Positions 3,912-6,867 of a DNA stretch of 64,000 nucleotides are shown one piece after another. The notes beneath the pieces were generated by a model that was not told where the DNA came from, searched no databases, and worked only from the letters and a program-made list of their open reading frames with translations. Position 1 is the first letter of the stretch. Each line of letters opens with the position of its first letter. Made by a program: the position numbers and the translations under genes. Source of the stretch: Candidatus Latescibacterota bacterium (GTDB taxonomy: Bacteria; Latescibacterota; UBA2968; UBA8231); the NCBI GenBank assembly GCA_965219385.1, contig CBDCNM010000002.1, forward strand, positions 4,412,305 through 4,476,304, in the 5' to 3' direction.

Positions 3912-4627
3912 CCGCACTACTTGACGGGTACTTGACAGGACCCGCTTCTCAGAGACGAGATTATCGCATTATAAGCCCACCAAGAGGCCGTATGACCGTT
4001 TCCACAAGTGAACTCCAAACCTGGATGAGCGACAGGGAAGACGAGCATCTGGAGTTCAAAGAGGCAAGGACTAATTTCCACTTTGAGACCTTGGTGAAGT
4101 ACTGCGTCGCCCTGGCCAATGAAGGCGGTGGAAGGATGATCCTGGGCGTAACGGATAAGCTGCCGCGCGCGGTGGTTGGTAGCCGGGCTTTTCCCAATCT
4201 CGAACGGACGAAGGCCAGTCTGATTGAGCGACTGCGGCTGCGCGTTGATGTCGAGGAAATTCAGCACCCAAACGGTCGGGTTCTGGTCTTTCAAATCCCC
4301 ACCCGTCCGATCGGTGTGCCTATGCAGTATAAAGGCGCGTATTGGATGCGTGGTGGAGAGGCCCTCGTTCCCATGACGCCGGATCAACTCCAACGCATTT
4401 TTGCCGAGGCCAGCCCCGATTTCTCGTCTGAGATTTGTACGTCTGCCCAATTGGACGATCTTGATCCGACTGCTGTGGATGTTCTGCGTCGACTCTGGCA
4501 GCGGAAGTCACCAGACCAGGACATCGCGACCCGACCCGTAGAGCAACTCCTAACAGATGCGGAATTGCTCGTTGATGGCAAGGTGACGTACGCGGCGCTG
4601 ATCCTGCTGGGCACGCGCAAAGCCCTA

Positions 4628-5778
4628 TTGCTCCGTTAAGGAATCAGACTTGCACTTTTCTCTTTATCGGAGCACTAGGGCACATTTTCTTCGCAAAGAG
4701 ACGAAAAAGTTGCCAGATGAAGACACCTGTCAGGTTCCCCGCTGAGAGCCGGATCCTCCTGGAAAGTCCGGGAGTAACGGTAGAGTCCGCCTTCGTCAAC
4801 GATGGCGCCAAGCGGTTCCTGGTGATAGTTCACCAAGTAGCGTTGAACAGCGACTCGTCGCCGGAGACGCCTGCCGTCGTCAAGTTCTCCGAGCGACAGT
4901 ACGCACTCCCTCACTCCCAAAGCATTCAGCTCGCAACTCCGGAATTCTACCGGTGCTGTCCGGGCGAGGACTTAGGCATCCGGGACGAGAAGGAGGCTTC
5001 CTACATCAGGAAAATGGACCTGAAGCGGTTCCTGGAGACGTACAACCCTCAGTCGGACTTGGCGAAGGCGTATGTACAGGGATCAACAGAATTGACCTTT
5101 GCCCAAGACGACTGCTGGATGTTCTGCACCTCCGTGAGACCAACCACGAAGGGGCTGGCGAGGCAGTTAGGGGGACGGATCTCCGAGGACTACGAATGCG
5201 GGGCGGTCATTGACAACCCTTCGGAGTTCGCCAGAGAGCTGGGAGTGACCTTCGGGACCCATCTGGCAGACGCGGACCTGCGGCTCGGAGGCTTGGACAC
5301 CGTGGCTAGGTACAGCCTGACGCTGACGCCCGAGTTAGGAGAAATGGTGGTGCGGGTCTATCACGGACCGGTCGTCTACACAGACAACCCGGCAGCCATA
5401 GTCGAGTCCTACCCCGAAGAGAGGCGTGCCGCTGTCGTTCCTTTCCTCAAGCGGTCTCAGTACTCCTACCAACGAGAGTACCGATTTGTCGTTGAAACCC
5501 ACGGCGAGGCGGTGAAGCAGGCTTTGAGCCTGCCCGTCTCCGACGACCTTCGCAGGCTGACCGAGGGGTGGGACCTGTAGCGGGCGGGTCGGACATCCCC
5601 CGAGCCGCGGCCCTCGCTCACCGCCACCAAGTGGTCGATGTCGGACTCGCCGGTCCGCGAAGTCTCCCGGTGTAGGCAAGCGCATGCAGAAATACCTCGC
5701 TTGGCGACGTTCGGGGAACAAGGCCGATGCGAAGCTGGTGAAGATCCAAAACTCCATGCCGACTCCTTAACAGAGCAC
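4628..5778. mobile_element. Non-autonomous IS630-like insertion cassette (terminal inverted repeats, TA duplication at CTAG) with a passenger gene
   Basis: Left end TTGCTCCGTTAAGGAATC versus reverse complement of right end GTGCTCTGTTAAGGAGTC (15/18); TA at 4626-4627 and 5779-5780; extra internal right-type end at about 4661-4675. Confidence 0.8.
4717..5580 (+). CDS. Hypothetical passenger protein, weakly DUF2971/ART-fold-like
   Basis: 287-aa ORF; motifs CWMFCTS, HGPVVY and FLKRSQYSYQREYRF resemble the DUF2971-type CFS / K...Y.YE.EYR pattern (recognition only). Confidence 0.6.
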   Translation: MKTPVRFPAESRILLESPGVTVESAFVNDGAKRFLVIVHQVALNSDSSPETPAVVKFSERQYALPHSQSIQLATPEFYRCCPGEDLGIRDEKEASYIRKMDLKRFLETYNPQSDLAKAYVQGSTELTFAQDDCWMFCTSVRPTTKGLARQLGGRISEDYECGAVIDNPSEFARELGVTFGTHLADADLRLGGLDTVARYSLTLTPELGEMVVRVYHGPVVYTDNPAAIVESYPEERRAAVVPFLKRSQYSYQREYRFVVETHGEAVKQALSLPVSDDLRRLTEGWDL

Positions 5779-6867
5779 TAGGCAAATATCTCGCCCAAGC
5801 AGAGCTTATTTTTGAATACCGTTCCAACGAAGTGCCGGGACCGGCGGCGGAACGACGTGAATTCAGACAGGGCTTTCTTCCTGTGCTCGACGAGATCTGG
5901 CGACTCATCAACCAGCGCAATGACCTGCAACACTTTCAGCAGGGGCTCTTTATTTGGGACGTGCCCACGTTCAACGAGCGCGTGGTTCGCGAGGCTGTCT
6001 TGAACGCAGTGAGTCACCGCGATTATCGCCACGGAGGCTCCATCTTCGTGCGCCAGTATCCTCGACGCATCGAGATCGTCAGCCCTGGCGGATTCCCAGC
6101 CGGCATCACCCCCGAGAACATCCTTCGGCAACAAAATCCGCGCAATCGTCGTATCGCCGAAGTCCTCGGCAAATGCGGCTTGGTCGAACGGGCCGGTCAG
6201 GGGTTTGACCGCATCTTTCGCGAGTGCATTCAGCAGAGTAAGTCGTTGCCCGACTTCTCCCACACGGATTCTCACTCCGTATGGCTCACGCTGCACGGCG
6301 ATATTCAAGACCCGGAATTCTTGCGTTTTCTGGAGGAGATTGGTTGGGAACAAGTGGCCGCATTCGGCCTTGACGATTTGCTGGTGGTCGATCTTGTCCA
6401 CCGCGAGCAGCCTGTTTCCGACGACCTTAAACCGAGGATTGAGCATCTGCTGGAACAGGGGATCATCGAGCGCGTGGGACGTGGGCGGGGCGTACGGCTG
6501 CTGCTGTCCCGGCAGTTCTACCGGCACATCGGTAAGGCAGGGGTCTATACGCGCAAGCGTGGATTGGACCGCGAGACGAACAAGGAGTTGCTGCTGAAGC
6601 ACATTCAAGATAACCGGAAAGAGGGGAGTCAGTTGCGGGAACTGAGGCAGGTATTGCCAGCCCTCTCGTACGTCCAAGTTCAGAAATTACTCCAAGAGTT
6701 GAGGATTAAGGGACAGATTCACAAAGTAGGGAACACTAGCGCCGCTCGCTGGTATCCAGGGAGACCGCCATCTGGAATTGTGTCTGAAAATAAATAATAG
6801 GCCAAAAAGCATAATTTTGGCACAATATAGGCGCAATTGATTTTATAAGTATCTGTTTTTCTTATAT

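Follow-up and report, generated by a model that had tools for sequence, protein, structure and literature searches.

The locus examined here raises the question of how a segment carrying a single gene came to lie within another, otherwise continuous gene, and whether such a segment, which holds no complete transposase, can travel as a unit. The window, meaning the whole 64,000-nucleotide stretch that was analysed (G000:C2:4412305-4476304), comes from the 5.8-Mb, 94% complete genome of a Candidatus Latescibacterota bacterium.

Insertion site and interrupted gene

The segment, referred to below as the cassette, occupies window positions 4628-5778 (1151 bp) between TA copies at 4626-4627 and 5779-5780 that lie inside C-TA-G, and its terminal inverted repeats at 4628-4645 and 5761-5778 agree at 15/18 positions. 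Length, repeats and TA duplications in a CTAG target had all been put forward in a first-pass annotation of this DNA and are confirmed. The features of the locus, in window coordinates, are listed here.

3992..4627, plus strand: 5' half of the target gene with the SLFN_AlbA_2 domain (PF04326, E 7e-13; 80-93% DNA identity to homologous loci)
4626..4627, no strand: left TA copy of the duplicated CTAG target, read from the sequence (empty CTAG in loci L175, L176, L181 and L182)
4628..4659, plus strand: IS630 left end, comprising the terminal inverted repeat 4628-4645 and the -35 box of the IS promoter (24-28/32 identical to five autonomous left ends)
4660..4675, plus strand: inner IS630 right-type end, followed by TAG (13-14/16 identical to autonomous right ends)
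4679..4716, plus strand: native 5' flank of the passenger, probably captured with the gene (aligns upstream of the Dehalococcoidia homologue L049)
4717..5580, plus strand: passenger gene, 287 aa (34 homologues)
5581..5671, no strand: GC-rich spacer of 91 bp, for which neither the genome nor the loci compared gave a convincing match
5672..5770, plus strand: IS630 transposase remnant, last 32 codons and stop (its 32 residues are 66% identical in amino acids to the C-terminal end of the transposase of the autonomous element L042)
5761..5778, minus strand: right terminal inverted repeat (15/18 to the left repeat; same end in autonomous copies)
5779..5780, no strand: right TA copy of the duplication, read from the sequence
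5781..6797, plus strand: 3' half of the target gene with the HATPase_c_4 domain, still open (PF13749, E 6e-18)

Once 1153 bp are taken out, a 550-codon frame runs from the ATG at 3992 to 6797. This restored frame, which the first-pass annotation had pointed out, is indeed present, but a junction test showed that open frames also arise at many other in-frame junctions, so that an open frame alone cannot place the junction and was dropped as proof of it. The junction is instead placed by homologues (...RKAL|GKYLAQ...). Among 23 homologous loci compared, 18 read straight through at this point, 17 of these after an open stretch of over 150 codons, and in 5/23 the junction motif was absent by search; the target gene is thus not naturally split, a possibility that had been raised at first pass. 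The exact empty CTAG is found in four of the 23 loci, and contigs of two sequencing runs, X20 and X23, skip exactly 1153 bases at the junction. An empty GCCCTAGGC-type site, proposed at first pass as something to look for, therefore exists in four of them as well as in the contigs of the two runs. The skipping contigs probably represent related alleles rather than the same strain, because the listed X23 example is only 86-90% alike. The full, cassette-bearing allele occurs without any difference in X19 and X20 over 4598-5820 and in X21 over 4759-5820; these three runs belong to one study, which may be the source of the window genome. Metagenome runs labelled as sponge or coral made up small shares only.

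The interrupted gene is an SLFN_AlbA_2-HATPase_c_4 gene in a variable island of the defence type, and a role in defence is likely for it. The island around it holds HsdS, an OLD-like AAA-TOPRIM protein and DUF1828, together with a MORC-like ATPase, a response regulator and a C5 methylase in the annotator's reading of the neighbouring genes. The interrupted gene is patchy in its distribution, with matches to the 3' half in 22/168 genomes of the phylum; amino-acid identity of this half to its homologues reaches 95%. The 5' half runs into the element and ends at the TAA at 4637-4639, giving a shortened product of 215 aa. Both halves are open, with a dN/dS of 0.10-0.23 against intact homologues.

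Anatomy of the cassette and its parent clade

The outer ends of the cassette are those of an IS630 element. In a DNA comparison with 60 relatives, the right end matches many of them at 73-88% identity. As had been hoped for at first pass, autonomous IS630 elements with the same ends were found: 13 complete elements of 1154-1156 bp, ~78-100% alike. In 11/13 of these, two overlapping open frames meet at an A-rich run, and we infer that the parent transposase is expressed by frameshifting. Both frames of L042 match the NCBIfam IS630 transposase model NF033545 (E 2e-21 and 9e-28), each alone falling below the 100-bit whole-protein cut-off of that model. TAG follows 20/21 of the right ends found by BLAST, and a preference of IS630 for CTAG was reportedly described by Tenzen and Ohtsubo in 1991, as the title has it. 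A CTA-anchored end pattern is present in 14/76 family genomes, paired as full elements in at least six and reaching 17 end pairs in genome G013, against one match to the reversed control pattern across all 76; a chance origin of the ends is therefore excluded. The cassette itself has the TA duplication at CTAG and the shared terminal inverted repeats of an IS630 element, and of a transposase of its own it has the last 32 codons only. The first-pass annotation was thus correct in that no whole transposase is encoded, and overlooked the 32 C-terminal residues of one that are encoded at 5672-5770. Ends of IS701, IS4 or IS5 type had been considered in view of the CTAG target and a minus-strand ORF at 5335-5757; they were rejected since the full homologous elements encode an IS630 transposase, the ORF being the antisense of the transposase tail.

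Members of this clade also generate miniature elements. In genome G002, which has nine full-length end pairs, four MITEs of 94 bp and of identical sequence each occupy a CTAG site of their own, a precedent within the clade for mobilisation in trans; this genome also holds a 2.05-kb structure made up of a MITE, cargo and a solo end; miniature elements of 66 to 203 bp with related ends are found in G016 and G020. In the genome under study, the sole relative of the cognate IS lies at C2:3784907-3786528; it has lost two internal stretches, and an IS5-type element interrupts its left end. As this decayed copy is present, the IS family was once resident in the genome, although no intact cognate transposase was found in the 94% of it that is complete.

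Within the cassette, the first-pass annotation had seen a plain pair of ends. The outer pair stands, but a third, inner end at 4660-4675 had been overlooked. This stretch is identical to the continuation of the left end at no more than 7/16 positions and to an inverted left end at 12/16, and it occupies the place of the -10 box of the IS promoter in autonomous copies. It closes a 48-bp mini-IS at 4628-4675, and passenger DNA begins immediately past its CTAG: the alignment with L049, 5' flank included, starts at about 4679 and shows 78% identity over 901 columns. At the other side, the right 107 bp with the transposase tail are 74-83% identical in DNA to the autonomous copies sampled.

This arrangement makes it likely that the cassette is a collapsed composite transposon, consisting of mini-IS, cargo and transposase tail, rather than a plain pair of ends. 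Two IS630 copies in the same direction would once have flanked the passenger gene; the left copy would have shrunk to the 48-bp mini-IS and the right one to its last 107 bp, and the outer left and outer right ends would have stayed usable after the collapse. The composite origin falls short of proven because the inner end also fits an inverted left end at 12/16 positions, and a hairpin-templated origin of the inner end may fit as well.

The first-pass annotation had called the insertion recent. Both halves of the target gene are open and not visibly decayed, and an insertion that is not old fits the sequence, but open halves and low dN/dS date nothing. The cassette itself, judged by its divergence, can hardly be called young: identity to the autonomous copies sampled is 74-83% at the right end and 24-28/32 positions over the left 32 nt, the cassette copies differ by 4%, the first base of the left end has changed (T, against G in autonomous copies) and this assembly has no intact cognate transposase.

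The passenger gene

The passenger belongs to an unnamed family with 34 close homologues and 650 clusters (50% identity) at E 0.001. Comparison of sequences confirms that the 287-aa ORF is a real gene, as first claimed, because of these homologues and of a dN/dS of ~0.3 against three outside loci. The family lacks a name in the resources searched: Pfam models, DUF2971 (PF11185) included, match 0/28 close and 0/67 distant members, and the passenger has no match in PADLOC (0/8), NCBIfam or PDB sequences. A lead to DUF2971 came from the Atlas (score 0.91, 105-110/256 features), where 25/30 named matches have DUF2971 in a minority of their members. The conserved residues are K56, C137-T-S139 and Q252-R-E254; K56 lies on a strand and is invariant in 28 close members, C137-T-S139 lies on a strand, and E254 is invariant in 88.

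The order of these motifs resembles that reported for the ART-like families near AbiGi and DUF2971, and they may correspond to the three-motif ART signature on strands (R/H; S-T-S or a variant; (Q/E)xE). As described in PMC12522546, the ART-like protein Lsan_2474 has the motif order R/K, CxS, (Q/E)xE, and PMC11381338 describes Aristaios (DUF2971), an experimentally tested anti-phage gene whose own match to an ART is likewise weak. The core of the passenger was modelled with a pLDDT of 94. Foldseek returned nothing from the PDB at E 0.001 with either model, and in a wide fold search, where no match reaches Z 5, the best and still weak match was Scabin (Z 4.2, rmsd 3.7, 93 aligned residues), with DarT (Z 3.8, rmsd 3.9, 105 aligned) and Tpt1 also on top. 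Of the top 16 rows of this search, 15 are ART-fold chains. From model and motifs we infer that the cargo would be an NAD-dependent ADP-ribosyltransferase, divergent but in the neighbourhood of AbiGi, DUF2971 and DarT, and possibly an abortive-infection gene.

The genomic context of the family is suggestive of defence. L049, the closest named homologue, adjoins a CBASS-like operon with ThiF, SMODS and SAVED-TIR. Across 20 own-phylum loci, drawn mostly as the strongest of 30 other protein matches, defence or toxin-antitoxin neighbours (families classified by eye) were found at eight, against 5/20 arbitrary control stretches (p 0.25).

The cargo appears to be foreign to the phylum. In a tree of 31 rows (the 10 best own-phylum loci, seven named outside loci and 14 database proteins including that of the window), the passenger falls in a supported group of 15 rows together with Chloroflexota sequences. 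Constraining the passenger to group with its own-phylum homologues was rejected (p-AU 0.017, with long branches in play), which supports acquisition from outside this phylum; the tree does not indicate a particular donor. Among 42 loci with passenger homologues, IS ends were seen once, as a look-alike with two mismatches that was judged to be chance, and no IS ends were found beside the homologues in 20 wider loci. Further, a promoter scan of the plus strand over 3900-7000 found none, and hence no sigma-70 promoter upstream of the passenger. As the -10 box of the IS promoter is gone, expression of the cargo would need read-through or an unrecognised promoter.

Mobility, rival accounts and known systems

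Evidence on movement comes from a second copy of the cassette. An 1811-bp contig of run X23 (record 27) aligns to the window solely at 4624-5781, where 1150 bases show 43 differences and 10 gap letters (96% identity), while 541 and 120 letters beyond the cassette remain unaligned; sequences only 86% alike did align elsewhere in X23. The alignment takes in the element together with CC-TA on one side and TA-G on the other, as in a CTAG target, and this contig supplies essentially all of the X23 depth over the cassette interior. X23 differs in study and host code from X19-X21. Judging by its non-aligning flanks, in a single contig from a single run, the second copy seems to occupy another site, and movement of the cassette as one unit is likely. 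The changes of record 27 match a database protein, P0002 (284 aa, 25 substitutions, on a 4.2-Mb contig), at I70V, C80S and C81Y, which are all three nonsynonymous positions shown, and at a 9-bp deletion; P0035, with 92% identity, represents a third variant. Both cassette copies have an intact ORF and keep all family-invariant residues. With 25 residue changes against 43 base changes in total, dN/dS between the copies is at least about 0.5, so the cargo may be under weak selection.

Searches for further copies were negative in the genome under study, at the DNA level in 60 relatives, at the protein level in 167 phylum genomes (other matches having E 1e-70 or weaker), in 251 genomes of a Dehalococcoidia order and among the plasmids and viral contigs searched. 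Scans of GTDB and JGI, from which records very near the window may be missing, likewise contained no cassette copy, the closest match being 70%, and the mini-IS pattern returned only an unrelated 66-bp mini-IS, in G016, from 168 phylum genomes. Other cassettes with different cargo, which the first-pass annotation had proposed to look for, amount to a single candidate (L100), with a cargo present just once among the 76 family genomes; the rest of the 20 unpaired or odd-length ends searched are MITEs and truncated ISs. The proposal of a non-autonomous mobile element is supported by the autonomous IS630 with the same ends and by the second copy, which supports movement as a unit; gene delivery, as named at first pass, would be a putative function.

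Collectively, we consider it quite probable that a transposase-less, IS630-derived one-gene cassette split the AlbA_2-HATPase gene at CTAG, and that it moves as a block, by cut-and-paste, with the transposase of an intact IS630 having the same ends. The cognate transposase would have been supplied by an autonomous copy that was transient or has since been lost, in this host or an earlier one; it would cut the block at the outer ends and paste it into CTAG sites, of which the present one is an example. According to PMC2170065, the ISY100 transposase suffices by itself to excise mini-elements that keep ~30 bp of each end and to integrate them, with duplication of TA. The copy in this genome may by now be dead, given the changed left terminal base and the lack of an intact cognate transposase.

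Several other accounts have to be weighed against this one. An intact IS630 could have entered the AlbA gene and had its interior swapped for the passenger in place, the block itself never having moved. The cassette is single-copy in this genome, its 1151 bp are near the 1154-1156 bp of a full IS, and in-place decay by internal deletion is common in the clade (C2:3784907-3786528, L024, L106 and L107). However, the 96%-identical copy from another study, with the same two boundaries and non-aligning flanks, is hard to reconcile with remodelling in place, as is the inner end with its CTAG directly before native passenger 5' DNA, which points to capture beside an IS end, and we regard this account as decidedly improbable. 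Mobilisation by the other resident IS630 family, which also targets CTAG, is less probable still. This family has different ends; 8/16 of the DDE_3 loci examined have TA-flanked ends starting with GTGTTG, four with open frames of 366-369 aa, and 7/9 of the first end bases agree with the cognate end, but the repeats diverge past base 9 and its transposase is only 26-29% identical in amino acids to the cognate one.

Two further readings carry more weight, and each of them is accorded somewhat less than even credence. Transposition may have taken place in another host containing the autonomous IS, the broken AlbA gene arriving here with its island by horizontal transfer, which would alter where and when the insertion occurred and not the nature of the element. 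Such a history agrees with the patchy occurrence of the target gene in a variable island, with the presence of related IS630 tails in the same runs as the allele (loose ends at 5745) and with the missing intact cognate transposase; against it, the decayed cognate IS of this genome, whose identity to autonomous copies is 84-91%, shows that the family was once resident. Likewise, the cargo could be a hitch-hiker with no current job, or no ART at all, and the cassette selfish debris. The elevated dN/dS between the copies, the missing sigma-70 promoter, the lack of a family match and the lack of significant defence enrichment are in keeping with this; set against them are the intact ORF and invariant residues in both copies, the dN/dS of ~0.3 at longer distance and the CBASS-like operon beside L049. 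The boldest extension of the preferred reading, that the IS630 clade routinely spins off mini-element cassettes which shuttle single conflict genes across phyla, this one bringing an unnamed, Pfam-less ART anti-phage family into defence islands, where a resident gene is lost in exchange, seems rather unlikely to us.

Parent IS, MITEs, cassette, empty site and apparent second site together form an unusually complete record of a gene becoming mobile. Such elements could offer a concrete route for the turnover of defence islands across phyla, and the cargo family, which comprises 650 clusters and is nameless in Pfam, may represent a new anti-phage protein of the ART fold. Like Aristaios, AbiGi and Lsan_2474, the cargo is a single gene of ~290-320 aa, with Scabin-type proteins and DarT nearest by low-Z fold matches; unlike Aristaios and DUF2971, it has no Pfam DUF2971 match, carries an extra N-terminal beta hairpin and is a predicted ART.

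The concept of such a cassette is itself known, and the present one is an IS630 version of mobile insertion cassettes (MICs) and MITE composites. MIC231, derived from IS231, is an example of the former. As defined in PMC3129680, a MIC consists of IS ends around a passenger gene, without a transposase. The cassette has this structure, and differs from described MICs in its IS630 ends, its TA duplication at CTAG, its asymmetric build and its unnamed cargo family. Integron mobilisation units are like-built composites. In Tn3-family TIME composites, as described in PMC4133298 and PMC13367494, miniature elements flank and mobilise a captured segment and the whole is non-autonomous. The cassette would work alike, as a non-autonomous composite with a captured segment; there, however, Tn3-type 38-bp ends and duplications of 5-6 bp are found, here IS630 ends and a 2-bp TA duplication, and in place of the two complete miniature elements of TIME-COMP/IMU structures it has one 48-bp mini-IS and a solo 107-bp right end. 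With IS630/ISY100 and IS630 composite transposons it shares the TA duplication, the CTAG preference, the terminal inverted repeats and the DDE transposase of the parent, whose clade has two overlapping frames within 1154-1156 bp, whereas the cassette lacks a transposase. A literature search, with most subscription papers and ISfinder/TnPedia outside its coverage, returned no bacterial IS630-derived cargo cassette. IS630 ends would do in bacteria what Tn3-type TIMEs and IS-derived MICs do.

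Genes and repeats flanking the target gene

Just upstream of the window, at L002:12194-16536, a large HATPase/histidine-kinase-like gene, a response regulator and a C5 methylase stand consecutively and are followed by an HsdS-like gene; an hsdM-like fragment lies near L002:8854-9438 and intact hsdM or hsdR is not visible, all as read from translations only. At its C-terminus, the HsdS-like ORF contains some nine repeats of 9 bp (window 1720-1800, ALD-type tripeptide); these overlap the start region of the OLD-like ATPase gene and could be a slippage tract.

Directly after the target gene, the AlbA_2-HATPase gene split by the cassette, lies an AT-rich stretch (window 6800-6900). 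It accompanies many related alleles in sequencing runs, with loose ends at 6776-6826, and may be a conserved sequence with a regulatory or boundary role.

Long forms of the passenger family

Own-phylum homologues of the 287-aa passenger (loci L138, L146 and L148-L152) are longer, at 500-610 aa, and have a C-terminal extension; these long forms lack any Pfam match. At L138, one long and one short form stand in tandem, adjoining AbiEi/AbiEii.

Elements related to the cassette

The cassette (window 4628-5778) measures 1151 bp versus 1154-1156 bp for the autonomous IS630, a difference of at most 5 bp that is probably coincidental. A decayed copy of this parent element with two internal deletions occupies G000:C2:3784904-3786531 in the same genome (loci L001 and L019), and the left inverted repeat of this decayed copy has an apparently intact IS5-type element inserted at its TAA.

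The relatives G020 (L090-L096) and G016 (L088) hold miniature-element families of 165-203 bp and 66 bp that have a common terminal repeat and unrelated interiors; a DNA search of relatives returned zero matches to the window's transposase tail in either genome.

In the relative G002, L100:3342-5395 (C1, about 2106840-2108895) comprises a 94-bp IS630 MITE and a solo right end of 26 bp, with roughly 1.9 kb of small ORFs between them, one of which encodes a collagen-like lipoprotein. By its cargo, this structure occurs in one copy only among 76 family genomes, and a search for its empty site found none. Joining its outer flanks would give a near-palindrome around CTAG, and the structure may represent a second cassette, built asymmetrically like that of the window.
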